The notes: generated by a model from the sequence alone, not told the origin. Counted from the first letter of the stretch, positions 6,950 to 63,552 are shown. The stretch is DNA of 64,000 nt from an uncultured Clostridium sp. (GCA_902471875.1 CABRLN010000004.1:7678-71677), one strand, 5' to 3'. Translations and numbers: made by a program.

Positions 6950-8779
6950 TTATTCACTATCGCCTGCAAGAGTAACATCTACTGTAAAGGTTTCCTTATT
7001 GTCAGTATTTTCTTTGTCATATCTGCAAACTGTAAGTTTTACCGTGTCACCTTCGCTGTATTTGTCAAGAGTAGAGAAAAGCTCTACAAATGAAGTTACA
7101 GGTGTATCATCAATTTTAGTAATAACATCTCCTTCTTTAATCTTTGTACTTCTCAAAGGGCTGTCACTTTCAATAGTGTTAATAATAATTCCTGCATCTG
7201 TACCATAGTAATTTGCTAAAGACTTTGAAAGCTCTTTACCCATAATTCCCAGCTTTGCTCTGCCCGGAACATAACCGTTTTTAATAAGCTGGTCAGCTAC
7301 TTCTTTTACTTTTGTACTTGGAATAGCAAAGCCCATTCCCTCATATTGAGTGTCAACTACCTTTATAGTATTAATACCAATAACCTGACCGTTCATATTA
7401 GCTAGAGGACCACCTGAATTTCCGGGATTTATGGCGGCGTCTGTTTGAATATATGTTACGGCACTGCCCGAAAGAGTTCGGTTTAGAGCAGAAATAATAC
7501 CTCTTGTTAAGGAGTTTGAATAACTGCTGCCTCCCGGACTTCCTATAGCTACAACATCCTGACCAACCTTTAATTCATTAGATGTTGCAAAGGTAGCTGC
7601 TGACCAGTTGTCTGCTTCTTCGCACTTTAAAACGGCTATATCGGTACGAACATCGCAGCCAACTACAACAACAGGATATGCACTACCGTCCTTCTTGGTA
7701 ATCCATACATTACTGTTGTCAGTTGTATCATTAATAACGTGGCTATTAGTTACAATATAACCGTTGCTGCTTAATACAATGCCTGTACCTTCGCTGTTTG
7801 GTACAGAACCGGTAGGGTCATCGTCTTCATCATATACCGAAATTGAAACAACACTTTCAGACAGTGCTTCATATGCTTTTTCTGTAGATCCGTTTTCTGT
7901 ATTATTTTTTTCAAGCTTTATTTGAGGACCATTTGGGTCAGCATATTTACCAATGCTATCGGTTGATTTTTTTGTTGTTGAATTTTCAGTAGGTAATTCA
8001 AAGTTAAATATATTATTGCTGTCATTGCTTGAATATTTGCTGTTATTACTTGCAATCCACCATACGAATATTCCTATAAAAATTACAGTTAAAGATATAA
8101 TGATACCAAGCAGCACCTTTATAGATGTAGCCATTGGTGTTTTATTTTTTTTAAATGTGGAGTATGATACAACAGGATAATACCACCCACCGTTTATAAA
8201 TTCCGGCTTTATGCCCGGAGGCAATACTGTGCCGGGGGTATATGGCAAATATTGCACATTAGGGGTGGCTGTATTGTTTGAATACGGAGAATTTTCATAA
8301 GGATTTAAATTTGGTGTTTGACCATATGGTGAATTAAAACCTTGCTGAGTTTGTTGCCCGTAAGGTTGGTTGTTGTTAAAACCTTGCTGAGTTTGCTGTC
8401 CATAAGGTTGGTTGTTGTTAAAACCTTGCTGAGTTTGCTGTCCATAAGGTTGGTTGTTGTTAAAACCTTGCTGAGTTTGCTGTCCATAAGGTTGGTTAAC
8501 ACCTTGTTGTGAGTTTTGATTATATGCTTGTTCTTCACGAATGTTTTCTATAACCTTATTAAAAGATTTTTCAGAACTTGCCGTATAATTATCATTAAAA
8601 GTTTCTTTGTTTTTCTCCATATTAATATTCTCTGTAATATTGTTAACGGGTTCGTTGGCAGTATCGCCAACGGGTTCAGCACTTGTTGACGATATAATAT
8701 TTTCATAGCTGTTATTAACATCTTTTTTATTATTAGTAGTATTTATTTTATTCTCTGAATTTTCAAATTCATTGTTCAT
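6950..8779 (-). CDS. Membrane-anchored HtrA/DegP-family serine protease (trypsin-like plus PDZ) with long N/Q-rich N-terminal domain
   Basis: Catalytic triad contexts TNSHVI, DIAVLK and GNSGGPL, with a C-terminal PDZ. One TM (VLLGIIISLTVIFIGIFVWWIA). About 220 aa N/Q/Y/G-rich N-terminus. AGGAGG SD present. Confidence 0.92.
   Translation of the reverse strand: MNNEFENSENKINTTNNKKDVNNSYENIISSTSAEPVGDTANEPVNNITENINMEKNKETFNDNYTASSEKSFNKVIENIREEQAYNQNSQQGVNQPYGQQTQQGFNNNQPYGQQTQQGFNNNQPYGQQTQQGFNNNQPYGQQTQQGFNSPYGQTPNLNPYENSPYSNNTATPNVQYLPYTPGTVLPPGIKPEFINGGWYYPVVSYSTFKKNKTPMATSIKVLLGIIISLTVIFIGIFVWWIASNNSKYSSNDSNNIFNFELPTENSTTKKSTDSIGKYADPNGPQIKLEKNNTENGSTEKAYEALSESVVSISVYDEDDDPTGSVPNSEGTGIVLSSNGYIVTNSHVINDTTDNSNVWITKKDGSAYPVVVVGCDVRTDIAVLKCEEADNWSAATFATSNELKVGQDVVAIGSPGGSSYSNSLTRGIISALNRTLSGSAVTYIQTDAAINPGNSGGPLANMNGQVIGINTIKVVDTQYEGMGFAIPSTKVKEVADQLIKNGYVPGRAKLGIMGKELSKSLANYYGTDAGIIINTIESDSPLRSTKIKEGDVITKIDDTPVTSFVELFSTLDKYSEGDTVKLTVCRYDKENTDNKETFTVDVTLAGDSE
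8336..8507 (-). repeat. Four tandem 42-nt (14-aa, QPYGQQTQQGFNNN) coding repeats inside htrA
   Basis: The motif ccttgctgag recurs at 8340, 8382, 8424 and 8466 (period 42). The three highest-coordinate copies read as identical. The lowest-coordinate copy differs at a few bases (ttgttgcccg versus ttgctgtcca). Confidence 0.95.
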
Positions 8780-16565: not shown

Positions 16566-16602
16566 AACCATATATAAGACATAGAAAGGATTGTCAGAAA
16601 TT

Positions 16603-18102
16603 ATGGATAAATTTTGGAGTCAATTCAAAAGCGGCACAGATATACGCGGAATAGCAAGTGAAGGTGTTGAGGGACAAGCTGTAAACCTTACAAATCAAGT
16701 TGTAACAGCCATTACGAAAGGTTTTGTAAAGTGGTTGTGTGACAAAACCGGTAAAAACGGTACAGCTTTAACTATTGCAGTTGGCAGAGACAGCCGTATT
16801 TCGGGTCCTCGTATAATAGAACAGGTTGAAAACGCACTTATGTCACACGGTGTACAGATGCTTAATTGTGGTTTGGCGTCAACTCCGTCAATGTTTATGA
16901 CAACTGTTGACCTAAACTGTGACGGTGCAGTACAAATTACAGCCAGCCACCATCCATTTAACCGCAACGGATTAAAGTTTTTTACCGTTGATGGAGGACT
17001 GGAGTCAGAGGATATTACAGTACTGCTTGAAAATGCTCAGAACAAATGCTTTGCACCTGAGTGTAGCGGTGGTAAGACAACCGCTGTAGATTATATGTCA
17101 CAGTATTGCGAACATTTAAAAGATATGATTTGCAAGGAAGTAAACAGCGAGAATTATAACAAACCTCTTGAAGGCTTTAAAATTGTTGTTGATGCAGGCA
17201 ACGGTGCAGGCGGATTTTATGCAAATAAGGTGCTTTTACCACTTGGTGCCGACACAACAGGAAGCCAGTTTTTAGAACCTGACGGAATGTTTCCTAACCA
17301 TGTGCCAAACCCAGAGGACGCAACGGCTATGAGCTTTATAAGCAAGGCTGTGCTTGACAACAATGCAGACTTGGGTGTAATTTTTGATACTGATGTTGAC
17401 CGTGGAGGTGCTGTTGACAGCACAGGAAACGAAATTAACCGTAACCGTCTTGTAGCAGTAGCGTCAGCTATTGCACTTGAAGGAGTTAAGGGAGGCACAG
17501 TTGTTACAGACTCGACAACCTCGGCAGGCTTAAAAATTTTTATTGAAAAGGATTTGCAGGGAAAGCACCATCGCTTTAAGAGAGGCTATAAAAATGTTAT
17601 TAACGAGGCAATTCGTTTGAACAAAGAGGGAATTAATTGTCCGTTGGCTATCGAAACCTCGGGTCATGCTGCAATGAGAGAGAATTACTTTCTTGACGAC
17701 GGTGCTTATTTGTGTACAAAAATTATAATTAAAATGGCACAACTGCGAAAAGAAGGTAAGAATATTTCAAGCTTAACAGCAAACTTGAAAGAACCTGTTG
17801 AAAGCAGAGAGGTTCGCTTTAAAATAACAGACAATGATTTTAAAGCTACCGGCAACAGAATTATAAGTGAGCTAGAGGAATATGCCAAAAAGCAGCAGGG
17901 CTGGATTATTGCAGATGACAGCCGAGAAGGAATTAGAGTTTCGTTTGGTAAAAACAACGGTGACGGATGGTTTTTGTTAAGATTAAGTGTTCATGACCCT
18001 ATTATGCCTTTAAATATTGAAAGTGATACTCAGGGCGGTGTTGATATTATTCTTGATAAGCTTATGATATTCTTAAAAACCTGCAATGGTTTAGATGTAT
18101 AA
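16603..18102 (+). CDS. Phosphoglucomutase/phosphomannomutase (alpha-D-phosphohexomutase family)
   Basis: Active-site Ser loop TASHHPFNRNG, Mg loop DTDVDRGG, sugar loop ETSGH. I prefer ATG 16603 over the track TTG 16591, which has no spacing to the SD. Confidence 0.92.
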   Translation: MDKFWSQFKSGTDIRGIASEGVEGQAVNLTNQVVTAITKGFVKWLCDKTGKNGTALTIAVGRDSRISGPRIIEQVENALMSHGVQMLNCGLASTPSMFMTTVDLNCDGAVQITASHHPFNRNGLKFFTVDGGLESEDITVLLENAQNKCFAPECSGGKTTAVDYMSQYCEHLKDMICKEVNSENYNKPLEGFKIVVDAGNGAGGFYANKVLLPLGADTTGSQFLEPDGMFPNHVPNPEDATAMSFISKAVLDNNADLGVIFDTDVDRGGAVDSTGNEINRNRLVAVASAIALEGVKGGTVVTDSTTSAGLKIFIEKDLQGKHHRFKRGYKNVINEAIRLNKEGINCPLAIETSGHAAMRENYFLDDGAYLCTKIIIKMAQLRKEGKNISSLTANLKEPVESREVRFKITDNDFKATGNRIISELEEYAKKQQGWIIADDSREGIRVSFGKNNGDGWFLLRLSVHDPIMPLNIESDTQGGVDIILDKLMIFLKTCNGLDV

Positions 18103-18655: not shown

Positions 18656-19705
18656 TTAAATACAATACAGGTTAGTGTCCCACAATGGTATATATGGGTG
18701 GTGTCTTAGATAAAATTTATATTCGGGATTAATGGCGTAGATAAGTAAAATAAGCTCAAATAAATCCTCAAAGGTGTGGTAAGCGGCAATGTTAAGTTTC
18801 GGCTTTTTTATGCTAAGAGTGTTTATACCGCCTGCCAAAGCCTGCTTTTCAGCACCCTCAACATCCATTTTTATATAAGTTACATTATAGTTTTTACACA
18901 GGGTATCTATAGTCGTTGTCTTTACGGGTGTACCTGTGGTGCATATGGTTGAGTTTCTGCCGCCTTTATTCGAAAAATATAATATGGTGTTGTTTTTCCA
19001 AATGGTCTTTTGGTGTGCGGTTATATTAGGCTTACCATTTATATATTCGCAAAGCTTTTTGTAGGTTTTGGGGTCCGGTTCAAGTGCAATTACATTGCCA
19101 TATCCGCCTGTTTCATTAATAAGCTCGGCTATAGTGTCGCCACGGTATGCACCTAAATCAAGGTAGTTTTCAGCCGCAGTTAATTTAAGTATATTTTTAA
19201 ATGCTTCTTTCTTATTGTCAGTACAGTTCCATAAATATTTTAACCTTCCGGTGTAATAAAATTTTACAGCATTTTCAAAAACAGTCCTTGAACGCATATC
19301 GCTCAAAAGAGAATATGCCGTTTTTATCTTTTCTTTATTGCTTTGCAAAAATGCATAGTCAAATACATTTTTGCCAAAAACAGGAACATTAGGTATAACA
19401 ACATTGTGCTTTTGCGAAATATTTTTTATGTTATTAATAACATCTTCAATTTGTGTGCCAAATGTAACGGCAATAACAATGTCTTTATATTTTCCTTCAA
19501 AATAACTCAACTTTTGTACAGTAAATCCTTTGTAGCTTTGTCCTCTTACAAAATCATCGCTTGCCATTACACCACTGCATTTTATTCCATAGCATTCAAA
19601 CAGCTTAAGTACTTTGTCTGCACCGTTCCCCATGCCGTACAATATAATAGGTTTGTTTGTGTTTTGCAGAAACTGCCATATGTTTTCTTCATTAAAATAA
19701 CTCAT
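18656..19705 (-). CDS. FkbM-family SAM-dependent methyltransferase with N-terminal Rossmann-like domain
   Basis: C-half has LDLGAYRGDT...ALEPDP...YIKMDVEGAEKQAL, typical of FkbM methyltransferases. Lies 10 nt upstream of yaiI. Confidence 0.8.
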   Translation of the reverse strand: MSYFNEENIWQFLQNTNKPIILYGMGNGADKVLKLFECYGIKCSGVMASDDFVRGQSYKGFTVQKLSYFEGKYKDIVIAVTFGTQIEDVINNIKNISQKHNVVIPNVPVFGKNVFDYAFLQSNKEKIKTAYSLLSDMRSRTVFENAVKFYYTGRLKYLWNCTDNKKEAFKNILKLTAAENYLDLGAYRGDTIAELINETGGYGNVIALEPDPKTYKKLCEYINGKPNITAHQKTIWKNNTILYFSNKGGRNSTICTTGTPVKTTTIDTLCKNYNVTYIKMDVEGAEKQALAGGINTLSIKKPKLNIAAYHTFEDLFELILLIYAINPEYKFYLRHHPYIPLWDTNLYCI

Positions 19706-30923: not shown

Positions 30924-32192
30924 TTAGTTTTTTGTATTTTCCGGTATATATACTACCTTAACATTCTCAACCCTTTGCTCAGTTGTTGAAATTACCGTAA
31001 AGCTTAATGTGTCTTTATATGTGAAGCTATCTCCGGATTCAGGAATATCACCAAGATTTTCCATTACCCAGCCGCCAACTGAAACGCTGTCGCTTATAAT
31101 GTAGTCTTCTCTCAAATTTAAAAGCTCAAGCATTGCAGATATGTTCATATCACCGCTTATGCTATATGTGGTGTCGCTTATTTTTCTGTATTCAGGAGTT
31201 TCATCTTCATCTTCGTCCCAAATATCTCCCACAATTTCTTCTAATAAATCTTCCATAGTTATTATACCCAGTGTTCCGCCGTAGTCGTCGGTAACAATGG
31301 CAATATGATGTCGTTGCTTTTTGAATTCAGCCAATGCAACAGACAATTTTTTTGTTTTGTAAATAAAAAAAGCAGACTTTATTAGTTTTTTTATGTCAGG
31401 CTGTTTGCCTGCTATAAGTGCTTCCAAATAATCTCTTGTGTGTAAAATACCAATAACGTTATCAATACTGTCTTTATACACAGGAATACGAGAAAAGCGT
31501 TCTTCTATTATAAGCTTTTTAATTTTATCTTCTGTGTCATTAATATCAATAGCTGTAATGTCAACACGGGGAGTAATAACCTCCTGTACAGTTTTTTCAT
31601 CAAAATCAAGTGCTGACTGTACCAGTTCTTTCTCTTGCTGTTCAAGAACGCCCTCTTGTTCACTTGTACCAATAAGAACCTTTAATTCGTCTTCGGTAAC
31701 AGAGGGTTGAGAATTTCCTTTTGTAAAAATTTTCAGCGCCAGTGATTTTAAAGCGATAAAAAAGAATACCAAAGGTGACAGTATTGTTATAAGCACCAAA
31801 AGTATTTTTGCTGTACCCAGGCAAAATACCTCGGCTTTTTCTTTTGCAAGACATTTTGGAATTATCTCACCAAAGGTTAATACAAGCAAGGTTACTACGC
31901 CCGTACTTATTGCTGCACCGGCGTCACCAAATAAATTCATACACAGAACCGTTGCTACCGATGAACAACCTATATTAACAATATTATTTCCAATAAGTAT
32001 GGTGGTAAGTGCTTTGTCATAGTTTTCGGTTACTTTAAGTGCGTTTTTTGCTCGTTTGCTTCCACGCTCTGCACTGTATTTTAATCTTATAGTGCTTACC
32101 GTTGAAAAAGCTGTTTCAATGGAAGAGAAAAAGGCTGAAAGAAATATGCAGACAATTATAATGACAAGCATTAATATGTCATATGTGTTCAA
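30924..32192 (-). CDS. CNNM/DUF21-CBS-CorC_HlyC family transporter-associated protein (hemolysin family)
   Basis: N-terminal 4-TM DUF21, CBS pair (VITPRVDI...IPVYKDSIDNVIGILHTRD), C-terminal CorC domain. Confidence 0.9.
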   Translation of the reverse strand: MNTYDILMLVIIIVCIFLSAFFSSIETAFSTVSTIRLKYSAERGSKRAKNALKVTENYDKALTTILIGNNIVNIGCSSVATVLCMNLFGDAGAAISTGVVTLLVLTFGEIIPKCLAKEKAEVFCLGTAKILLVLITILSPLVFFFIALKSLALKIFTKGNSQPSVTEDELKVLIGTSEQEGVLEQQEKELVQSALDFDEKTVQEVITPRVDITAIDINDTEDKIKKLIIEERFSRIPVYKDSIDNVIGILHTRDYLEALIAGKQPDIKKLIKSAFFIYKTKKLSVALAEFKKQRHHIAIVTDDYGGTLGIITMEDLLEEIVGDIWDEDEDETPEYRKISDTTYSISGDMNISAMLELLNLREDYIISDSVSVGGWVMENLGDIPESGDSFTYKDTLSFTVISTTEQRVENVKVVYIPENTKN

Positions 32193-32545
32193 TATAGTTC
32201 ACTCCAAATAAATAAAATATTTAAGAACTATTTTAACATATTATATTCATTAAATCCATATATAAATAAAAAATTAATATGTTATTCTGTCAGGCTTTAA
32301 AGTGTTATATTAAAATAATAAATATAAAAAGGTGAATAGATTATTGTAAAAGATGGTATAATTTTTAAGTAATACTGAAAATTATAGTTATACATAAAAA
32401 TGTTTTAAGATGTATTTAAAGATATTTATTATATTATTCTCAAAAAATTTTATTTGATTACAGCAGAACGATACAAAGTTATAAAATATTATAAAAAATG
32501 GGCTTTAATCTATTTAACTTTTTATATAAATGTTTTTCTAAATAC

Positions 32546-32574
32546 TTTTATATTCTTTTTATTTATGTTATAAT
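32546..32574 (+). promoter_or_regulatory. Candidate extended -10 promoter for the cpsB/BY-kinase cassette
   Basis: TGtTATAAT at 32566-32574 with a weak -35 TTTTAT 17 nt upstream, about 37 nt before the cpsB ATG. Confidence 0.45.
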
Positions 32575-32610
32575 TTAGAGTAATGTAGTAAAAGATAGGA
32601 AGATTATTCA

Positions 32611-33357
32611 ATGACTGATTTGCATACTCACATATTATATGATGTTGATGATGGTTCAGATAGCTTTGAAATGTCTATGGCTATGCTTGAAATTGCCGGT
32701 AAATTCGGTACTAAAAATATAGTGTTAACACCTCATTGTAATATTCCTGGCGGTTATTTAAACTATATGAATGATGTTATAATAGGCAGATTTGAAAAAA
32801 TAAAAAATGAAGTAAAAAAAAGAGAATTAGATATTAATGTTTACTTGGGTATGGAGGTTTACGCAAGTAACGATATTGTAGATTTAGTTGCAGGCGGTAT
32901 GGCAATTACACTTAATTCATCACGCTATTTGTTAACTGAGTTTGCTTTTGAAGAAGACCCGCTGTGGGTTAGCAACATTCTTGGTAAAATACAGAGCACA
33001 GGCTTGGTGCCTGTGTTGGCACATCCTGAAAGATACACATATGTTCAAAGATTTCCTCAAATGGTTTACGATTGGGTGAATAGTGGTTGCGTAATTCAAA
33101 TTAACAGGGGAAGTTTGTTGGGTAAGTTTGGAGAGCGTGTAAAAAATACGGCTGCGTTATTGTTGTCGCATAATTTGGTGCATATTGTTGCAAGTGACGG
33201 TCATAAGCCGTATCATAGAGCACCGGTTTTAAATGATGCTTATGATTGGACAGTAAAACATTGCGGCGTTAAAAGAGCAAATAAGCTTTTTAAAGAAAAT
33301 CCTGAGTGTGTTCTAAAAAACAAAAAACTTGAAATGCTTAAAACAAAGCAATTTTAA
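32611..33357 (+). CDS. cpsB: CpsB/YwqE-type PHP-family protein-tyrosine phosphatase
   Basis: MTDLHTHILYDVDDGSDS, TPHCN, LAHPERY and IVASDGH align block for block with streptococcal CpsB metal-binding motifs. Confidence 0.93.
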   Translation: MTDLHTHILYDVDDGSDSFEMSMAMLEIAGKFGTKNIVLTPHCNIPGGYLNYMNDVIIGRFEKIKNEVKKRELDINVYLGMEVYASNDIVDLVAGGMAITLNSSRYLLTEFAFEEDPLWVSNILGKIQSTGLVPVLAHPERYTYVQRFPQMVYDWVNSGCVIQINRGSLLGKFGERVKNTAALLLSHNLVHIVASDGHKPYHRAPVLNDAYDWTVKHCGVKRANKLFKENPECVLKNKKLEMLKTKQF

Positions 33358-33379
33358 TTTTTTAAGGTAAGGAGATTAT

Positions 33380-33982
33380 ATGAAAAGAATAATTAGAAAT
33401 AGTATCATAAGATACATATGTATGATATTAATTTTAATATTTTTATTTGGTGCTTTTGGTGTTTATTATTATAATAATAAAAGAAAAATTCAAAATTATC
33501 CGGTTATTACGTTTTCGGATAATTATAAAACCAGCGTCAGCGTAAAGGTAACGGAACAAGAACTTTTAAACAATGTTACAGCCTCAGATGTTGAAGATGG
33601 TGATTTGACAAATGATATTATTATAGAACAAATGTCAAACCTTATAAAAGGAAACAGACGGGAGGTTGTTTTTGTAGTTTGTGATTCTGATAATAATGTT
33701 ACGAAGGTAACGAAAGAAATTACTTATACAGATTATCAAAAGCCTGTAATTACATCTATTGAAAAAGTACCTGTTATAAAAGAAAGAAAGTACGCTGATA
33801 TTCTTTCTTGCTTTAAGGCTACTGATGTTATTGACGGCGATATAAGTGACAAAATAAGAATTGACAGTATTGACACAAGTAAAGATAGTATTAACAAAGG
33901 CGTATTTCCGGTTATGCTTTCTGTTACAAACAGCTGTGGAGATATATCATATCTTGAAACATCTGTTACATTAATAGAATGA
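33380..33982 (+). CDS. Membrane-anchored protein with two Ig-like (DUF5011-like) repeats
   Basis: N-terminal signal-anchor (ICMILILIFLFGAFGVYYY). Two repeats of about 75 aa each start with PVIT and contain D(V/I)xDGD(L/I)(T/S)(N/D)(D/K)I. Starts 22 nt after cpsB. Confidence 0.7.
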   Translation: MKRIIRNSIIRYICMILILIFLFGAFGVYYYNNKRKIQNYPVITFSDNYKTSVSVKVTEQELLNNVTASDVEDGDLTNDIIIEQMSNLIKGNRREVVFVVCDSDNNVTKVTKEITYTDYQKPVITSIEKVPVIKERKYADILSCFKATDVIDGDISDKIRIDSIDTSKDSINKGVFPVMLSVTNSCGDISYLETSVTLIE

Positions 33983-33998
33983 TGGAGGGCGTATCGAT

Positions 33999-35447
33999 AT
34001 GAAAAGCTTGAATGAAGTTATGAAGGAACAAAACAAAAATTATTCTTTTGATATTGTCAGTACCCTTAAGGATATTTTTAGAAACTGGTTTATTGTTCTT
34101 ATTGTTGGTATTGTTGCCGGAATGGGCAGCTTTATTGTAACTACTCAAATGTACAAGCCGCAGTACAGTGCATCAATTACATTGTTGGTGCAAAGCAAAA
34201 CTAACAGTCAGAATGTCTATGATAGTTTAACTGCAACAACAAAGCTGGCAGGTGTTTTTAAAAATATTCTAGATAGCAGTCAGCTTCAAAATGCAGCTGC
34301 AGAATCATTAGGTTATAGTCAATTTCCGGGTACTTTGTCGTGTTCTATTGTAGAAGAAACCAATATTCTTTCGTTTTCAGTAAAGTCAGATTCGCCAATA
34401 AAGTCATACAGGTTATTAAACGCTGTGCTTGACAGTTACCCTCAATTTACAAAAAATGTAGTTTCAAGTATTGTGCTGCAAACTTTAGAGGAGCCTGTTG
34501 TGCCTGTTTCACCTGATAATAATTCAAATGCAACACGGTCAATGATGCTTGGCTTTTTAATTGGAATATTATTAACTGTTGCTATTATAGCAGTACTATC
34601 ATACTACAAGGATACTATAAAGAAAGAAAGTGACATAGAGAAAAAGCTGAATGTTAAAAGAGTAGTTTCAATTCCAAAACAGAAAAAGAAAATAAGCTTT
34701 AAAGAAAAAATAAAGGGTGTTAAAAAATCTTTGTCGTTAGCTAACCCTGTAATTAGCTTTGAATTTAGAGAATCTTTTAAAAAACTAAGGCGTATTATTG
34801 TATCCGATAGTAAAAACAATAGTCATAAGGTGTTTTCGGTAACAAGTTCTTTGGAAAACGAAGGCAAGACAACCATAGCTGTTAACGTTGCCATGGTTTT
34901 AGGTAAGATGGATTACAAGGTGCTGCTGATTGATGCCGATTTAAGAAAGCCTGCAGTGACAAAATTCCTTGATAAAAAGCTTCCTGAAGGAAAAGAGCTT
35001 ACAGATTTTTTGAATGGTAATGCACGTCTTTCAGACATAATGCATTATGATGAAATAAACAATATTACAGTAGCAGGCTGTAACAAGGGTACAACATTAG
35101 CAAATGAACTTGTTACATCAGACAAAATGGAATATTTGTTTTCTGTTGGCAGAGAAAAATATGATTATGTAATTGTTGATACTTCTCCGCTAGGTTTTGT
35201 TTCTGACGCAGAAGATGTTTTAAGTATTAGTGATTCCGCTTTGTTAGTGGTAAGAAGAGACATTGCCAATGCACTTACAATTAATGATACTGTTGATATA
35301 ATTTTAAGTACAGGTGTTAAGCTTTTGGGTTGTGTTTACAATGATTCTGAAGCTGTTAAGTTGACAGGAAATAATATTAATTACAGCAGCTATGGCGGTT
35401 ATGGTTATGGAAAATATGGTTATGGCTATGGTACAGCAGGTAAATAG
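33999..35447 (+). CDS. Fused Wzz-type chain-length-determinant/BY-kinase (tyrosine autokinase), paralog 1
   Basis: TM1, extracellular loop of about 130 aa, Pro-rich PCP motif PVVPVSPD, TM2. Kinase motifs: Walker A ENEGKTT, A' LLIDADLRKP, B YVIVDTSP. C-terminal Tyr cluster YSSYGGYGYGKYGYGYG. Confidence 0.9.
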   Translation: MKSLNEVMKEQNKNYSFDIVSTLKDIFRNWFIVLIVGIVAGMGSFIVTTQMYKPQYSASITLLVQSKTNSQNVYDSLTATTKLAGVFKNILDSSQLQNAAAESLGYSQFPGTLSCSIVEETNILSFSVKSDSPIKSYRLLNAVLDSYPQFTKNVVSSIVLQTLEEPVVPVSPDNNSNATRSMMLGFLIGILLTVAIIAVLSYYKDTIKKESDIEKKLNVKRVVSIPKQKKKISFKEKIKGVKKSLSLANPVISFEFRESFKKLRRIIVSDSKNNSHKVFSVTSSLENEGKTTIAVNVAMVLGKMDYKVLLIDADLRKPAVTKFLDKKLPEGKELTDFLNGNARLSDIMHYDEINNITVAGCNKGTTLANELVTSDKMEYLFSVGREKYDYVIVDTSPLGFVSDAEDVLSISDSALLVVRRDIANALTINDTVDIILSTGVKLLGCVYNDSEAVKLTGNNINYSSYGGYGYGKYGYGYGTAGK

Positions 35448-35461
35448 GGGGGTGAAGCATT

Positions 35462-37006
35462 TTGAATAATAAATTTGAATCTGAGAACAGCTACCATTAC
35501 ATTTCATTTGGTGAAATATTACTAAGAGTACTTAACGGAGCAAAAAAACACTGGTGGCTAATTGCAATATTGGCAGGTATATTGTCACTTTCTTTTGTTT
35601 TTTATTCATATAGGAACTATGTGCCGCAGTACAAGGCAACCGCTACATTTACCGTTTCTCCAAGAGATACCAATATTTCGTCTTATTCAAGTACCTCAAG
35701 CAGTGCTTCTACCTTACAACTAGAAAAGACGTTTCCTTATATTATTACCAGTGCTCCTCTTACCAATGTGGTAACTGAAGATTTGGGGCTTTCGTCAATG
35801 CCGGGTTCTATTACGGCAACTGCAGTTGAAGATACAAATCTTTTTACAATTACGGTAACTTCAAGTAACTATGAAATGGCTTATAATGTGCTAAAGTCGG
35901 TAATTAATAATTATCCCAGTGTAGCAGAATATGTTGTTGGTGCAACAGACATTGTTTTGGTTGTACCGCCTTCGGCATCATCTGAGCCTGTTAACAGTGT
36001 TTCATACCGCAATTGGGCAGTAATTGGTGCCGGTGCGGGCATTATAATGGCTTTGGTTATAATTTTAATTTTAGAAATGTTTAATGTTACAGTTCGCCGT
36101 CCTGATGATATAGAATCTTTGCTTAATAACGAAAGAATAGGATCTATTGTTAAAGTGGTACGAAAAAAGAGCAGTAATGCTACTGACATAATTTCTATTG
36201 ACAATGTTCATGCAGATGGAAGATTTAAAGAATCAATTTTCTCTATAAGAAATAAAATCATAAAGAAATGCAAAGATAATAAGATTAATTCAATAATGAT
36301 AGCAAGTACCGCTACTGATGAAGGCAAAACTACAATATCGGCAAATTTGGCTGTTTCATTTGCCAAAAAACATTATAGAACAGTCATTATTGATTGTGAT
36401 TTAAGAAATCCGTCATTAAGGAAGCAGATGAGTATTCCCGATAATTGCAGTTTAGGTATAGTAGATGTTATTACAGGTAAATGCAATCTTGAAGATGCAA
36501 TTGTTAAACTGAAAAAGAACGGTTTATATGTCCTGCCAGGTACTGAGTCTGTAAGTAATGCGTCGGAGCTTATGGGCAGCAAACAGCTTGCCGAGCTTAT
36601 TGAGGCACTTGAGAGAATGTTTGATTATGTTATTATTGACGTACCGCCTGTAGGAATTGTAGCCGATGCACTTGAACTTAAAGACACTGTTGGTGGTCTT
36701 GTATTTGTTGTAAGACAAGATTATGTAAAGGTTAACAGAATATTAGACTCTATAAGTTTGTTTGGTTCAAGTAAAATTCAAGTTTTAGGTTGTATATTTA
36801 GTATGGCGTCGGGAGTATTTGGCTCTAAAGGATATGGAAGGTACGGTTATAACAGTTATGGTTCATATGGAATGTATGGCAGTGGATATTACCGTGGAAA
36901 GTATGGTTATGGCAGGTACGGCGGTTATGAAAGTTATGCAGATGATAGTAATGATGATGGCACTGAAGATTTTGACCAAACAATAGAAAAAAACGAAACA
37001 AATTAA
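35462..37006 (+). CDS. Fused Wzz-type chain-length-determinant/BY-kinase (tyrosine autokinase), paralog 2
   Basis: Same architecture as paralog 1. Walker A TDEGKTT, A' VIIDCDLRNP, B YVIIDVPP. Long GY-rich tail followed by an acidic end. TTG start 6 nt after a GGGGGTGA SD. Confidence 0.88.
   Translation: MNNKFESENSYHYISFGEILLRVLNGAKKHWWLIAILAGILSLSFVFYSYRNYVPQYKATATFTVSPRDTNISSYSSTSSSASTLQLEKTFPYIITSAPLTNVVTEDLGLSSMPGSITATAVEDTNLFTITVTSSNYEMAYNVLKSVINNYPSVAEYVVGATDIVLVVPPSASSEPVNSVSYRNWAVIGAGAGIIMALVIILILEMFNVTVRRPDDIESLLNNERIGSIVKVVRKKSSNATDIISIDNVHADGRFKESIFSIRNKIIKKCKDNKINSIMIASTATDEGKTTISANLAVSFAKKHYRTVIIDCDLRNPSLRKQMSIPDNCSLGIVDVITGKCNLEDAIVKLKKNGLYVLPGTESVSNASELMGSKQLAELIEALERMFDYVIIDVPPVGIVADALELKDTVGGLVFVVRQDYVKVNRILDSISLFGSSKIQVLGCIFSMASGVFGSKGYGRYGYNSYGSYGMYGSGYYRGKYGYGRYGGYESYADDSNDDGTEDFDQTIEKNETN
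36830..36937 (+). repeat. Gly/Tyr-rich low-complexity coding tract (BY-kinase 2 tyrosine cluster)
   Basis: The translation GYGRYGYNSYGSYGMYGSGYYRGKYGYGRYGGYESY has 13 Tyr in 36 residues, counted from the supplied ORF. Confidence 0.9.
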
Positions 37007-37211
37007 ATATTTATGCTAAAAACCATTTAAACAGAGTATAACTTAGCTGTAAAATTTGCCCGGTACAGCATTTTCTGATTAATAGTTAACAACCAGTCTG
37101 TGCCGGTGTTATTGTACTGAAAAAATTTACAGAATAATCTATTACATGTACATGCTTCTAATGGTATTTAGCATTATTTTAGCAAGTTAAATATTTTTAT
37201 GGAGGTTAATC

Positions 37212-38066
37212 ATGAATAAGGTTATTAAATTTGGTATAAATTTTTTAGCAGTCATATCAATTATCACAGTTGTAATTTTAATTTGCTTTGCTGACAATTT
37301 GTTTGCTGTTGACAGTTCAGGTAATGTTATTAAGAATACGGGGAATTCAGTGTATATATCTTTTGAAACAGACCCTTTAATATTGGATGGTACAGATATT
37401 AACTTGATGGATGGGGTAACTGCTACAGACTCACAAGGTAACGATGTTATTGGTTTGGTAAATGCTTCTGTTGTAAATGATAATGAGGACAAAGCAATAA
37501 TGTACAGTGTTAATGATTCTGATTATGAATTAGAAACTACCAAAAGAGGTTTACAGCTTACAAATTATAAAGGACCGTCTATAGCTATTAAAAAGACTAC
37601 ATATACCTGTGATATTAACGAAATTAATTCTTATATTAAATCGTTAATAGAGGCAAAGTCTATTGTTGCAAAAGACGGTTATGGCAATGACATATCTTCA
37701 AGTGTATATGTTGACCCTTATGTTCAAATAAAAAAGCCGGGAAAACAAAATATAGAATTAACTGTAAAAAATATATTTTCTGACGTTGCAAAAAGAAATA
37801 TTAGTATTACCATAACAGGTTCACTTAATGAAACAAAAGTAACCCTGTCAACAGAAACAACAACTGTTAAGAAAGGTACTATGTTAGACCCTGCAAGATA
37901 TATTGTAAATGCTGTTGATGAAGATGGTAAGGATATTAAGGATCAAATAGTATTTGACAACCAGGTTGATGTAAATACACCGGGAAGATATAATATTTAT
38001 TATTATATTTCAGGTAAGGATAATGAGACACCTGCCGCTACGTTAACAGTAGTAGTAACTGAATAA
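37212..38066 (+). CDS. Membrane-anchored protein with three Ig-like (DUF5011-like) repeats
   Basis: N-terminal TM (FLAVISIITVVILICFA). Repeats contain TATDSQGNDV, AKDGYGNDISSSV...PGKQNIELTV and AVDEDGKDIKDQIV...TPGRYNIYYY. GGAGG SD present. Confidence 0.7.
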   Translation: MNKVIKFGINFLAVISIITVVILICFADNLFAVDSSGNVIKNTGNSVYISFETDPLILDGTDINLMDGVTATDSQGNDVIGLVNASVVNDNEDKAIMYSVNDSDYELETTKRGLQLTNYKGPSIAIKKTTYTCDINEINSYIKSLIEAKSIVAKDGYGNDISSSVYVDPYVQIKKPGKQNIELTVKNIFSDVAKRNISITITGSLNETKVTLSTETTTVKKGTMLDPARYIVNAVDEDGKDIKDQIVFDNQVDVNTPGRYNIYYYISGKDNETPAATLTVVVTE

Positions 38067-38072
38067 TTATGC

Positions 38073-38103
38073 AAACACCGTAGTAAGACTGCGGTGTTTT
38101 TGT
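38073..38103 (+). terminator. Intrinsic terminator closing the cassette
   Basis: Hairpin AAACACCGTAG-taaga-CTGCGGTGTTT followed by a T-run. Confidence 0.85.
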
Positions 38104-38170
38104 TATATGTTTGGTATTGGTAATATTAGACCATGCCTAACAATTATCATAATTTAGCTGTTGCTATATC

Positions 38171-38264: not shown

Positions 38265-38702
38265 TTATTTACCTGTTGAGCCAAATCCTCCGGTGTTGCG
38301 TACAGTTTCATCAAGATTTTCTGTAACTACAACATTTGGTATGCACACCGGCATAACAACCATTTGTGCAATTCTGTCGTTAGGATTAACTGTGTAGTTT
38401 ACGTTACTACTGTTTTGCAAAATAACGCATAGCTCGCCACGGTAGTCACTGTCAATTACTCCTACTCCGTTTGCGAGTGAAATTCCATGTTTTATGCCTA
38501 AGCCACTTCTTGCAAACATGAATATACCATATTGATTGCTTGGTAGCTCTACAGCAATACCTGTAGGTATTGTAACACGCTGACCTGCATTTATTGTAAC
38601 AGGCTTTGTAATGCAGGCGTGTAAGTCCATACCTGCCGAACCTTCGGTTGCTCTTACAGGAATTATTGCGTTATCTTTTAGTTTTTTTATTTTTAAATCC
38701 AT
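38265..38702 (-). CDS. dut: dUTP diphosphatase
   Basis: 145 aa trimeric dUTPase motifs: ATEGSAGMDL, ARSGL, GVIDSDYRGE, RIAQ, GGFGSTG. Confidence 0.96.
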   Translation of the reverse strand: MDLKIKKLKDNAIIPVRATEGSAGMDLHACITKPVTINAGQRVTIPTGIAVELPSNQYGIFMFARSGLGIKHGISLANGVGVIDSDYRGELCVILQNSSNVNYTVNPNDRIAQMVVMPVCIPNVVVTENLDETVRNTGGFGSTGK

Positions 38703-50143: not shown

Positions 50144-51379
50144 ATGGAGGATGAAAGATACGACTCAGAGTTTGAAGATGAGCGTCTTAGAAAACGACAA
50201 GAACAACGCCGTATCAGAAAAAAGAAAGAATTAGCCCGAAGGCGTATGAGAAACAGAATTATAATGATAGTTATAGCGTTATTAGTTCTATTATTTATTA
50301 TACTTGGTATTTCTTCTTGTGTTTCAAGCTGTGCAAGCAAAAGTGCCCAAAATGCTCAAACAAATAATGCAGGTGCCAATTCAACAACACAGCCGCAAAC
50401 GGCTACAGTTGCAGCAGCAACACAATCTTCAACACAGCCTTCTACACAACCCACAAACGCTATTAAAGACAATGGTGAAGATGGCTATGTAACAGACTCT
50501 GGAATTTATATTTGGGATAACAAGGCTTTTGAGATGTTTTACGGTACAACAGACATGGCTCAGACATATGCAAACGCCATATCTCATTACAGACAGCAGC
50601 TTGATAGCTCTATTAACGTTTATAATATGGTGGTTCCAACCCATGTTGCGTTTGGTTTGCCGGACAGACTTGAAAGTAAGGTTGAAAGCAACAGCCAAAG
50701 TGATTATTTAAATGCAATTTATAGCCTTTATAATGCTGATATAAAAAGTGTAAATATTTATGACGCAATGGAACAGCACAAAACAGAATACGAATTTTTT
50801 AACACTGACCACCATTGGACAGCATTAGGTTCTTATTATGCATATCAGGAATTTTGTAAGGTTGCAGGTGAAACACCTGTAGATATTAATAAACTTACTT
50901 CAAAGGAGATTACAGGCTTTGTAGGTTCACTGTACACATCAACAAGTGCAGAGGTTCTTAAAAATCACCCTGACACCGTACAGTATTACGATATGCAAGA
51001 AACATACACAATGAACCTATTGCAGAAGGGCAGCGATGATTTTATTGAGCTTGACAGTATGTACTATCAAGATGCTCAAGCCGGTTCTGAAACTTACGGT
51101 GTATTTATTTGGGGTGATAACCCTATTACAAAAATTGAGAATGCGGATAAAAAGAATGGCAGAAAAATTCTTGTCATTAAAGAATCTTATGGTAATGCTT
51201 TTGTACCTTGGCTTGTAAATAATTATGATGAGGTTCATGCTATTGATTTTAGGCATTACGAAGGTAATGTTGTAAGCTATTGTACAGAAAACGGTATTAC
51301 TGATGTACTGTTTTTAAACGGTGTAATGAGCTCATCCAGCAGCTTTCAAATTGACAGCATGAGTTCGTTATTTGCCTAA
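50144..51379 (+). CDS. DHHW-family membrane-anchored protein (SGNH/AlgX-like, putative acyl-transfer accessory)
   Basis: Literal DHHW motif (FNTDHHWTALG). Arg/Lys-rich cytoplasmic N-terminus, one TM, Q/T-rich linker. Confidence 0.85.
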   Translation: MEDERYDSEFEDERLRKRQEQRRIRKKKELARRRMRNRIIMIVIALLVLLFIILGISSCVSSCASKSAQNAQTNNAGANSTTQPQTATVAAATQSSTQPSTQPTNAIKDNGEDGYVTDSGIYIWDNKAFEMFYGTTDMAQTYANAISHYRQQLDSSINVYNMVVPTHVAFGLPDRLESKVESNSQSDYLNAIYSLYNADIKSVNIYDAMEQHKTEYEFFNTDHHWTALGSYYAYQEFCKVAGETPVDINKLTSKEITGFVGSLYTSTSAEVLKNHPDTVQYYDMQETYTMNLLQKGSDDFIELDSMYYQDAQAGSETYGVFIWGDNPITKIENADKKNGRKILVIKESYGNAFVPWLVNNYDEVHAIDFRHYEGNVVSYCTENGITDVLFLNGVMSSSSSFQIDSMSSLFA

Positions 51380-51682: not shown

Positions 51683-52522
51683 TTACCTGAAAAAAGCATC
51701 ATAAGGTAATCCGAACCACTCTCTTACCCAGAAGGTTGGTAAAAGAATCCAGTTAGTTTCAGCACTTACTGCACCAATGCTGCTTTCAATGCCCAACTTG
51801 CGTGCTATAAGTAAGGCTCTGGCTTGGTGAAAGCCGTCTGATACAATAGCTATGTCTGTATTTTTGTTCTGATTTTTAATAATGTTATATGAATATAAAA
51901 TATTTTCTTGTGTGTTAGTTGCTTTTTCTTCAAGAAATATTCTGTTTTTGTCAATACCGTTTTGTGTAAGTACATTATACATACACTGTGCTTCTGTAAT
52001 GCTTGCTGTATTGCCCAAACCGCCTGTTGCAACACAAATTGCTTTGGGATTATCTTCAAGAAATTTTGTTCCTGCTGTAATCCTGTCATATAATATTAAG
52101 CTTGGGCTTGTACCCTTAACCTGTGCACCAAGTATAATAGCCGAAGCGTTTGTGCTTGGCGGAATACTTGCAAATACAGCCATAAAAATGCTTGTAATAA
52201 AGGCATAAACAGCAAATGTGTAAATTAGAAAACGTCCTGTTTTCCACAATATTTTAGTAAATGTATTTTGGTAAAACTTATTTCTAAGCTTTTTAAACAA
52301 GGGTTTGGCACCAAAATAGACAATAACAAACAAGCTCATTATTATTCCGAATAAATTATAAGGATTTATAATTCCGTAAATTATAAAAGGCAGTATAAAC
52401 CAAATTAAGAAAATTGAACCTATTATTACCATAGCTGTTCTAAAAATTGTGAATATTGCTGATGTTTTGTGTTTAGAATTTTTTATTTCAGATGAAGCTG
52501 AAGTTTGAATTTCTTGTACCAT
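51683..52522 (-). CDS. YdcF/ElyC/SanA family protein (DUF218) with N-terminal TM segments
   Basis: DUF218 blocks ILGAQVKG...TGGLG...EAQCM...TNTQEN...IVSDGFHQARA. I prefer the MVQEIQ start after an AGGAGG SD. Confidence 0.85.
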   Translation of the reverse strand: MVQEIQTSASSEIKNSKHKTSAIFTIFRTAMVIIGSIFLIWFILPFIIYGIINPYNLFGIIMSLFVIVYFGAKPLFKKLRNKFYQNTFTKILWKTGRFLIYTFAVYAFITSIFMAVFASIPPSTNASAIILGAQVKGTSPSLILYDRITAGTKFLEDNPKAICVATGGLGNTASITEAQCMYNVLTQNGIDKNRIFLEEKATNTQENILYSYNIIKNQNKNTDIAIVSDGFHQARALLIARKLGIESSIGAVSAETNWILLPTFWVREWFGLPYDAFFR

Positions 52523-52703
52523 AATAAACCTCCTGTATGTTATATAATACCACATAAATATAATTTAATATTATTGTATCATACCGCTTTAATGAATACA
52601 ATTAATGACAATATTATTTACATATTATACATAAATTCTACAAATTGTTTTAGGAGGCAACGACTGCATTAAATTATATTTGCAGAAAAATATATGCAGA
52701 AAT

Positions 52704-53776: not shown

Positions 53777-54052
53777 AAATGATAATATTTTAAACCTGTG
53801 AGCAGGAGTAGTAACAGTGCTTTATAAGGTACAAAGAGAGTTTTGCATTTGGTGTAAGCAAAATTGCCTGTAACCTGTGAATGGACCTGTGAGGGCGACC
53901 CGAAATTTTTAAAAGTAGGCGTTGACGGCTACCTTGTCGTTAAAAAAGGAGCGTATGTTAGTACGTGATGAGTGGATGCTTTGGCGTCAATTTGGGTGGT
54001 ACCGCAGAAGTTTTGCTTTTGTCCCTTAGTTGTAGGGATAAAGGCTTTTTTT
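53777..54052 (+). ncRNA. T-box leader riboswitch, tryptophan (UGG) specifier
   Basis: AGAGA box (53835-53839), specifier-loop context GAA-UGG-A (UGG at 53882-53884), AGUA-type element, conserved T-box AAUUUGGGUGGUACCGC (53989-54005), and a terminator/antiterminator arrangement directly upstream of trpE. Confidence 0.9.
54015..54052 (+). terminator. T-box expression-platform terminator
   Basis: 12-bp stem GCUUUUGUCCCU/AGGGAUAAAGGC (two G-U pairs), 7-nt loop, then T7. Confidence 0.85.
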
Positions 54053-63356: not shown

Positions 63357-63552
63357 TAAAAACAAATCCTTTACTTTATGTAATGGTATATATGCTGTTC
63401 TAAGACAGCAGGTGTATTGCACATAACAGGAAGTTACCTACCTGCCGAGGACAAGTCAGTATGACAATATACAGTCGTTCTGTGCCTTTCCTCGCAAATG
63501 GAAAGGCACTTTTTGTTGCATAACACCTATTACTTTATGGAGGTGAACTATT
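63357..63552 (+). ncRNA. rplJ (L10) leader with internal attenuator hairpin
   Basis: 196-nt untranslated region between rplA and rplJ. It contains GTGCCTTTCC-8 nt-GGAAAGGCAC plus T5 at 63482-63514. Position and layout match the L10(L12)4-controlled attenuation leader known in Bacillus. Confidence 0.65.

Follow-up and report, generated by a model that had tools for sequence, protein, structure and literature searches.

Bacterial tyrosine kinases (BY-kinases) are understood mechanistically from homo-octameric Wzc and from CapA/CapB. The system described here is a cassette of five genes, cpsB, Ig1, BYK1, BYK2 and Ig2, in a 64,000-nucleotide stretch of DNA (the window) from an uncultured Clostridium sp. 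(GCA_902471875.1 CABRLN010000004.1:7678-71677). The cassette encodes a phosphatase, two tandem kinases that are each fused to a transmembrane module and two membrane proteins with immunoglobulin-like (Ig-like) domains (Table 1). Judged from its sequence, the cassette is most likely a lineage-specific functional equivalent of streptococcal CpsB-CpsC-CpsD and not a new kind of signalling system. It probably serves as the co-polymerase, kinase and phosphatase control unit of a Wzx/Wzy-type surface-glycopolymer pathway with synthesis genes elsewhere, because the four-gene core (cpsB-Ig1-BYK1-BYK2) heads exopolysaccharide (EPS) clusters in relatives.

The S. pneumoniae CpsA-CpsB-CpsC-CpsD and S. 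aureus CapA/CapB/CapC systems (polysaccharide co-polymerase class PCP-2b, F-type) resemble the cassette in the PHP phosphatase and in a short CpsC-type ectodomain between two transmembrane segments. S. aureus CapA/CapB also provides the kinase domain closest to those of BYK1 and BYK2. In some relatives of the cassette, an LCP gene, cpsB and the kinase genes are arranged in the cpsABCD order of streptococcal loci. The cassette differs from the streptococcal and staphylococcal systems in that modulator and kinase form one polypeptide and occur as two divergent tandem paralogs. Moreover, Ig1 is located between the phosphatase and the kinases, Ig2 follows the kinases, and the genes are not inside a glycosyltransferase operon.

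E. coli Wzc-Wzb-Wza (PCP-2a, P-type) shares with the cassette a single-chain kinase in which an ectodomain between two transmembrane segments is followed by the kinase domain. Both also have an EX2RX2R-type motif and a tyrosine tail, which serve ring assembly and trans-phosphorylation (PMC9800525). The ectodomain of the window kinases is short, whereas that of Wzc spans ~400 aa with a long helical part, and the window kinases are nearer to CapA/CapB by sequence. The phosphatase is of the PHP type and not a protein tyrosine phosphatase of low molecular weight. A gene for a Wza-like outer-membrane partner (OPX) was not seen in a reading of the window translations.

In B. subtilis, modulator and kinase are split, a single kinase is present and the substrate gene ugd is adjacent. 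The TkmA-PtkA-PtpZ(-Ugd) system is similar to the cassette in that a kinase and a PHP phosphatase form a unit apart from the main EPS operon, and the phosphatase of the cassette is homologous to YwqE/PtpZ. The window kinases, in contrast, are fused and duplicated, have Ig-like partners and lack a nearby ugd. Precedent for non-canonical co-polymerase/kinase partners in Wzy-dependent pathways is found in Myxococcus xanthus EpsV/EcpK and Caulobacter HfsA/HfsB, where EcpK and HfsB are pseudokinase partners without catalytic residues and tyrosine tails (PMC12004946). Unlike EcpK and HfsB, both paralogs of the cassette keep catalytic residues and tails in 70-72 of 72 loci, and neither is a pseudokinase.

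Fusion of modulator and kinase is a known minority form, because fused ('P-type') BY-kinases account for 281 of 5880 Bacillota entries in a 2022 review (PMC9800525) and 98.7% of Firmicutes BY-kinases were split in a 2014 survey (PMC4007543). In the open-access literature, no paper was found that describes the pairing of tandem paralogs, their Ig-like companion or an operon detached in this way. The fusion itself is known, but the widespread architecture of tandem paralogs with an Ig-like companion is so far uncharacterised.

Domain structure of the phosphatase and the two kinases

The window CpsB protein matches PF19567 (CpsB_CapC) with an E-value of 4.6e-61, covering positions 2-234 of 234. 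Among PDB entries, it matches CpsB (3QY8/2WJD; E-value of 3e-35) and B. subtilis YwqE (3QY6; E-value of 5e-32). In an alignment to 3QY8, residues H5, H7 and H42, the Glu of the G-x-E motif and the H-x-E and D-x-H motifs are retained. The narrow Cps4B equivalog model gives a score of 165 bits against a cut-off of 400. By these profile matches, CpsB is a member of the PHP phosphatase family and not a Cps4B ortholog.

The two kinases each combine an N-terminal CpsC-like module with a MinD/ParA-type P-loop domain (AAA_31). The Wzz family is matched at 36.1 bits by BYK1, above the cut-off, and at 25.1 bits by BYK2, 0.4 bits under the cut-off of 25.5. The TIGR01007 'tyrosine autokinase' model scores 122.5 bits for BYK1 and 135.0 bits for BYK2 (curated cut-off of 108), and the CpsC family model TIGR01006 matches the N-terminal 230 residues of both proteins (E-values of 5.5e-22 and 1.2e-15, respectively). 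Transmembrane segments were located by a hydropathy scan at residues 31-49 and 182-200 of BYK1 and residues 31-49 and 186-204 of BYK2. An AlphaFold2 model of BYK1 places a first transmembrane helix (residues 30-50), an α/β ectodomain (residues 56-164) and a second transmembrane helix (residues 178-203) ahead of the kinase domain. The kinase ectodomain is short (about 110-130 aa) and CpsC-like.

The sequence motifs of both catalytic domains are those of BY-kinases. BYK1 contains SSLENEGKTT (Walker A), VLLIDADLRKP (Walker A') and YVIVDTSP (Walker B), and the corresponding BYK2 segments are TATDEGKTT, VIIDCDLRNP and YVIIDVPP. An E-x2-[RK]-x2-R oligomerisation motif is present in both kinases. The C-terminal tail contains 8 Tyr residues in BYK1 and ~15 in BYK2, where the tyrosines are followed by an acidic end. 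By motifs and family scores, both proteins are classed as BY-kinases. Their predicted fold, with two transmembrane helices around an extracytoplasmic α/β domain, is that of the PCP-2 (Wzz/CpsC) architecture.

The top Foldseek match of the BYK1 model is full-length Wzc (7NHR; E-value of 1e-25). The BYK1 catalytic domain superposes on S. aureus CapA1B1 (4JLV) with a TM-score of 0.90, and BYK2 is closest by sequence to CapA/CapB chimeras; on these grounds, BYK1 and BYK2 are CpsC-CpsD fusions rather than an imported Wzc. A preliminary description of the cassette had regarded the fused form as the proteobacterial Wzc style. That comparison holds for the fusion itself but not for the short CpsC-like ectodomain, the CapA/CapB-like catalytic domains or the PHP phosphatase.

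Genomic setting of the four-gene core

Relatives of the cassette were collected from genomes and assemblies as 84 non-redundant loci, and gene context was read to 10 kb around each match. The window's clade (Acutalibacteraceae) comprises loci with a BYK1 at least 47% identical to that of the window, and distant relatives exhibit 30-37% identity. The loci come from metagenome-assembled genomes (MAGs) of Acutalibacteraceae, Oscillospiraceae, Faecousia, Lachnospiraceae, Erysipelotrichaceae, Bulleidia and Coprobacillus and from the cultured Sharpea azabuensis. The closest protein matches belong to Acutalibacteraceae or Oscillospiraceae MAGs. The window's species was not found among GTDB representative genomes, whose best matches reach 67-71% identity, and the exact BYK1 sequence has no match in public assemblies.

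Tandem kinases are present in 77 of the 84 loci. The order cpsB-Ig1-BYK1-BYK2 is observed in 62 loci (Oscillospirales, Lachnospiraceae and Erysipelotrichales), and the complete five-gene order including Ig2 is observed in 20, which occupy at least five different flanking contexts. Two kinase modules per genome are found on one contig in L044 (9177-12900 and 17093-21362) and on two contigs of MAG RUG11803 (L021 and L025).

In distant relatives, the four-gene core often adjoins Wzy-type EPS loci. The Sharpea azabuensis core (L093) has a CapD-like gene ahead of it, and directly behind it come genes for a Bac_transf/GT4 priming enzyme, for an EpsG polymerase and for GT4, GT2 and GT4 glycosyltransferases. 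Six GT2 genes, one EpsG gene and one GT4 gene follow the core in L008/L009, and a Bac_transf gene lies directly after it in L060. The core also heads priming, EpsG and glycosyltransferase genes in L058, L063 and others, and several Oscillospiraceae and Faecousia loci show this arrangement. In an approximate census based on hidden Markov models (HMMs), 18 of the 40 distant loci and 2 of the 16 clade loci had a priming, glycosyltransferase or EpsG gene within 10 kb; at least three such genes are present in 10 of the 40 distant loci. GT1/4, Bac_transf, LCP, GT2 and CapD-like genes are among the commonest neighbours in a Pfam census of nine systematically sampled distant loci.

A second group of neighbours is observed in the distant loci. 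Usually encoded ahead of cpsB-Ig1-BYK1-BYK2 are an ABC exporter of 570-650 aa and a signal peptidase I of the SipW/archaeal type, ~160 aa long (L008/L009 1600-8386 and L040 1978-8328; also L030, L034, L050, L066, L079 and L082). The same loci often add a radical SAM/SPASM maturase, a PqqD-like chaperone, a weak ScmC-like protein and a PF14907 nucleotidyltransferase. Together, these genes resemble a set for maturing and exporting peptides that is coupled to the kinase module; neither the window nor its clade contains the set. Counts from an 'S24-like' HMM were not used because the model drifted onto ABC exporters.

The window itself contains no GT2, GT4, Bac_transf, EpsG, LCP, flippase, LicD or TagF-like gene, as determined with HMMs from annotated relatives, reading of the translations and Pfam spot checks. 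The priming transferase, glycosyltransferases, Wzx and Wzy of a complete Wzy-dependent capsular polysaccharide/EPS locus were thus not found in the window. The earlier statement that polysaccharide-synthesis genes lie on neither side of the cassette therefore extends to the whole 64 kb. Across the clade (139 flanking open reading frames (ORFs) from 21 loci), the commonest neighbours are CNNM/CorC in 12 loci, CmpB-like in 6, RecG in 5 and DNA polymerase III delta' in 4, and Glycos_transf_2 is found just twice. The downstream neighbour is dut in the window and pyruvate kinase, recG-dacA, dnaX, rpsP-ffh or an amylase gene elsewhere. The cassette has thus long stood beside CorC while the genes on its other side were exchanged, and it did not break off recently. 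In keeping with the preliminary view of a stand-alone module, the cassette recurs without glycosyltransferases as a unit in its own clade (20 loci in at least five flanking contexts), where it lies among variable housekeeping genes, and the orthologs are not always inside EPS operons.

Synthesis genes missing around the cassette in the window would be expected if the cassette were what a rearrangement had left of an EPS operon, decaying and without present function. However, its five ORFs are intact, each with a ribosome-binding site, and 12 of the 21 clade loci, some with protein identities as low as 53-60%, share the arrangement next to CorC/CmpB. The catalytic motifs do not vary. Across seven species pairs, each of the five genes has a ratio of nonsynonymous to synonymous substitution rates (dN/dS) of 0.05-0.26 (MAFFT alignments). 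The dN/dS values and the conserved promoter effectively rule out decay, and a remnant is extremely improbable.

Individual clade members do adjoin genes of surface-polymer assembly. Sortase and LCP genes lie immediately upstream of cpsB in some members, reproducing the streptococcal cpsA-cpsB order. Other members contain Acyl_transf_3 and a Polysacc_synt (Wzx-type) flippase nearby, IspD, epimerase, LicD and GT2 genes nearby, or a TagF-like gene 4 kb downstream of the cassette. At L028 (1799-5437), three tandem EpsG-family (Wzy-like polymerase) genes are located just upstream of DUF1015, CorC and the cassette, and no glycosyltransferases lie beside them.

The preliminary description had suggested that the cassette could be a sensory or regulatory module and not a capsule co-polymerase system. 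The second half of this view is not supported by the distant relatives, in which the same core heads priming, EpsG, GT2 and GT4 genes (Sharpea azabuensis, Oscillospiraceae and Faecousia), and by the clade relatives with adjoining LCP and sortase, triple EpsG, Wzx-type flippase or LicD/GT2 genes. No sensory domain was found.

A stand-alone tyrosine-phosphorylation signalling module similar to B. subtilis TkmA-PtkA-PtpZ would be compatible with the control unit favoured here. In such a module, an Ig-tuned kinase pair would phosphorylate cytoplasmic enzymes or regulators, and co-polymerase activity would have been lost or become secondary in the clade. The cassette is intact, under purifying selection, equipped with its own promoter and found in at least five housekeeping contexts without glycosyltransferase genes, all of which agree with stand-alone signalling. 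The gain of Ig2 and the greatly expanded tyrosine tails in the clade suggest a change of function, and the window CpsB matches PtpZ/YwqE almost as well as it matches pneumococcal CpsB. Relaxed substrate specificity of BY-kinases is established (PMC4007543). On the other hand, both kinases keep the full CpsC-like membrane and ectodomain region, which is the co-polymerase part. Homologs reside in ordinary EPS operons, and clade members still adjoin LCP, EpsG, flippase and LicD genes. In addition to the missing sensory domain, no substrate candidate such as ugd was found nearby. Signalling as the principal function is accordingly considered rather unlikely.

As a control unit of polymer synthesis, the cassette would operate through its two kinases, which would assemble into a membrane ring, probably of mixed composition. 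The kinases would trans-phosphorylate each other's C-terminal tyrosine tails, CpsB would strip the phosphates from the tails, and this phosphorylation cycle would set polymerase and export activity. The scheme presumes that a ring forms and that it is mixed, as well as which polymer is targeted and what part the Ig-like proteins play. The clade module would be driven by its own promoter and physically separate from the sugar-transferase genes, whose place must then be elsewhere in the genome.

Several observations weigh against assignment as a control unit. The synthesis gene count in the 64-kb window is zero, and the partner locus is assumed, not seen. Recognisable glycan genes are absent within 10 kb in 16 of the 40 distant loci of the HMM census, so that the linkage between core and EPS genes is loose even among distant relatives. 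The census counts are approximate, as glycosyltransferase and EpsG genes were detected with home-made HMMs and a crude ORF caller with label-first gene picking. The unusually long tyrosine tails of the clade are not required by the classical model.

Two kinase lineages and their Ig-like companions

BYK1 and BYK2 of the window are 28% identical over their full length. In 72 kinase pairs, the first kinase is always nearest to window BYK1 and the second nearest to window BYK2 (144/144). Clustering of the same pairs by p-distances and the unweighted pair group method with arithmetic mean separates the lineages in 72 of 72 cases, and the nearest neighbour of every protein is of its own type. BYK1 and BYK2 are, on this clustering, two ancient orthologous lineages.

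The catalytic motifs are conserved in both lineages. The G-K pair of Walker A and the second Asp of Walker A' are present in all 72 orthologs of each kinase. The first Asp of Walker A' is kept in 66 of 72 BYK1 proteins, with Glu in the other six, and in all 72 BYK2 proteins, and the Walker B Asp is kept in 72 and 70 of 72, respectively. The P-loop of the BYK1 lineage is an invariant E-N-E-G-K, and that of the BYK2 lineage is the usual (P/A)-G-E-G-K-T. The E-x2-[RK]-x2-R motif and Tyr-rich tails are retained in both lineages. Walker A, A' and B and the tyrosine tails are thus kept in the window kinases and in their orthologs, in agreement with the earlier judgement that neither kinase is degenerate.

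The tails differ in length between groups. The median number of tail tyrosines is 11 for BYK1 and 22 for BYK2 in the window's clade, 8 for both in the distant relatives and 8 for the family. BYK2 orthologs with huge tails of YGN/YGD repeats are encoded in L020 (5433-8573), L019 (5698-8652), L015 (11812-13851) and L017 (6282-8321). The longest BYK2 tail contains 77 Tyr in 588 residues of these repeats.

BYK1 and BYK2 are adjacent and in the same order, with a gap of a few bases or an overlap, in nearly every locus. That they constantly accompany each other, in one order and with junctions that are short or overlapping, fits a heteromeric complex, which is not proof of a mixed ring. The paralogs could instead form two independent homomeric rings that act on two polymers or at two steps. 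Each paralog has its own pair of transmembrane segments, activator segment, catalytic and oligomerisation motifs and tyrosine tail, as an independent ring would need, and two separate CapA/CapB pairs are reported for S. aureus (PMC3795738). The close and constant gene arrangement argues against two rings, as does the accompaniment of the kinase pair by only one phosphatase and one Ig1. Moreover, the seven single-kinase relatives in the sample are all without Ig1, and all but one are also without CpsB. Two separate rings are possible but appear doubtful.

A bolder interpretation, which is distinctly improbable, combines an obligate BYK1/BYK2 hetero-ring with an Ig-like partner and frees both from polysaccharide synthesis in Acutalibacteraceae. 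The cassette would then be an autonomous surface-linked phosphotyrosine switch, and the tails of up to 77 Tyr would act as a graded phospho-store or scaffold.

Ig1 is positioned between cpsB and BYK1 in 62 of the 84 loci. Its AlphaFold2 model (mean predicted local distance difference test score of 89.8) consists of an N-terminal transmembrane helix (residues 2-34) and two Ig-like β-sandwiches. A structure search with Ig1 returned generic Ig, cadherin and S-layer domains only, and a profile search of 1.84 billion proteins identified its domain type as a common repeat of giant surface proteins. The fold consequently says little about the role of Ig1. All Ig1 homologs are annotated as hypothetical and are unnamed. 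Ig1 and Ig2 each have one transmembrane segment by hydropathy scan, at residues 9-27 in Ig2. Ig2 matches PF16403 (E-value of 8e-9) and Big_3, and it follows BYK2 in 20 related loci only, all of the window's clade. The PF16403 match of Ig1 is weak (E-value of 0.008), and its homologs do carry PF16403. With this weak match as the limit, profile searches recovered the domains expected from the preliminary description (CpsB_CapC, Wzz, AAA_31 and, in Ig2, PF16403). The same description had placed two Ig-like proteins at the flanks as extracellular partners. Ig2 does follow the kinases, but Ig1 sits between cpsB and BYK1 and is not a bookend; Ig1 is a constant companion of the kinase pair, and Ig2 is confined to the window's clade.

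Ig2 orthologs are enlarged to ~640-810 aa in L004 (13201-15552), L016, L018, L022, L024, L026 and L027. The L004 protein, the one examined, contains linkers rich in Pro and Thr, two repeated modules of ~170 aa and, at its C-terminus, a type I dockerin (PF00404; E-value of 2.4e-5). The dockerin suggests that this Ig2 is attached to a surface-located cohesin scaffold.

Layout of the window and significance of the cassette

ORF reading of the window gave five plus-strand genes at 32611-38066 with intergenic gaps of 22, 16, 14 and 205 nt, in that order, and a purine-rich ribosome-binding site ahead of all five starts. A consensus scan located a promoter 36 nt upstream of the cpsB ATG, and a TTGnTA...TGnTATAAT pattern is kept at equal distance to cpsB in 13 loci. 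The upstream region is AT-rich (26% GC in 32001-33000), and the 418-nt gap that separates cpsB from the divergent CNNM/CBS/CorC gene has no match to an Rfam family (no riboswitch or leader). Downstream of the terminator, the convergent dut gene is followed by a U32 peptidase gene. The coordinates, co-orientation, gaps, AT-rich gap, terminator and flanks previously listed for the cassette were all borne out. With its predicted promoter and terminator, the cassette appears to be a self-contained transcription unit.

Table 1. Features of the cassette and of other parts of the window (positions from the first nucleotide of the window)
Feature	Position	Strand	Description
cpsB	32611-33357	+	PHP-family, metal-dependent phosphotyrosine phosphatase, 248 aa
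Ig1	33380-33982	+	Single-pass membrane protein, two extracellular Ig-like (DUF5011/Big_3-type) domains, 200 aa
BYK1	33999-35447	+	CpsC-like transmembrane/ectodomain module fused to BY-kinase domain, 482 aa
BYK2	35462-37006	+	BYK1 paralog, fused CpsC-like/BY-kinase, 514 aa, TTG start
Ig2	37212-38066	+	Single-pass membrane protein with Ig-like domains, 284 aa
Predicted cassette promoter	32547-32574	+	-35-like TTTATA 32547-32552, 16-nt spacer, extended -10 TGtTATAAT 32566-32574
Predicted intrinsic terminator	38073-38105	+	Stem 38073-38099, 12 bp with 5 G-C pairs, 3-nt loop, T-run
CNNM/CBS/CorC gene	30924-32192	-	Upstream neighbour, divergent
dut	38265-38702		Downstream neighbour, convergent
HtrA-like serine protease	6950-8779	-	Long N-terminal low-complexity region
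Phosphogluco/phosphomannomutase	16591-18102	+	Isolated
FkbM-type methyltransferase	18656-19705	-	Isolated
DHHW/AlgX-like protein	50144-51379	+	Isolated; E-value of 9e-61
DUF218 protein	51683-52555	-	Isolated
T-box leader	53789-54029		Upstream of trpE-trpA operon, 111 bits
Ribosomal protein L10 leader	63381-63524		After rplA, 50 bits

The other genes of the window are housekeeping genes (V-type ATPase, HtrA, a two-component system, dnaG-rpoD, zapA, rimP-nusA-infB, the trp operon, nusG and rplKA). The DHHW/AlgX-like, DUF218, FkbM-type and phosphogluco/phosphomannomutase genes each have a possible link to the cell envelope, and none of them lies within a glycan cluster in the window. Four tandem 'NNNQPYGQQTQQGF' repeats were noted by eye in the translation of the HtrA-like protease.

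The detached operon implies that kinase-based searches for EPS loci, or the assumption that a kinase marks an EPS locus, mislead in this group. In gut Clostridia, which are abundant and for the most part uncultured, the constant Ig-like partner represents a part of Gram-positive polysaccharide assembly that is uncharacterised; among these organisms are relatives whose amylase genes include dockerin and starch-binding modules. Tests of the module could be made in the cultured Sharpea azabuensis. The two co-inherited paralogs, both catalytically intact by motif, constitute a natural test of whether the ring can be heteromeric, with enzyme and substrate roles split between subunits. The finding leaves the accepted purpose of BY-kinases standing and makes the question of a heteromeric ring testable.

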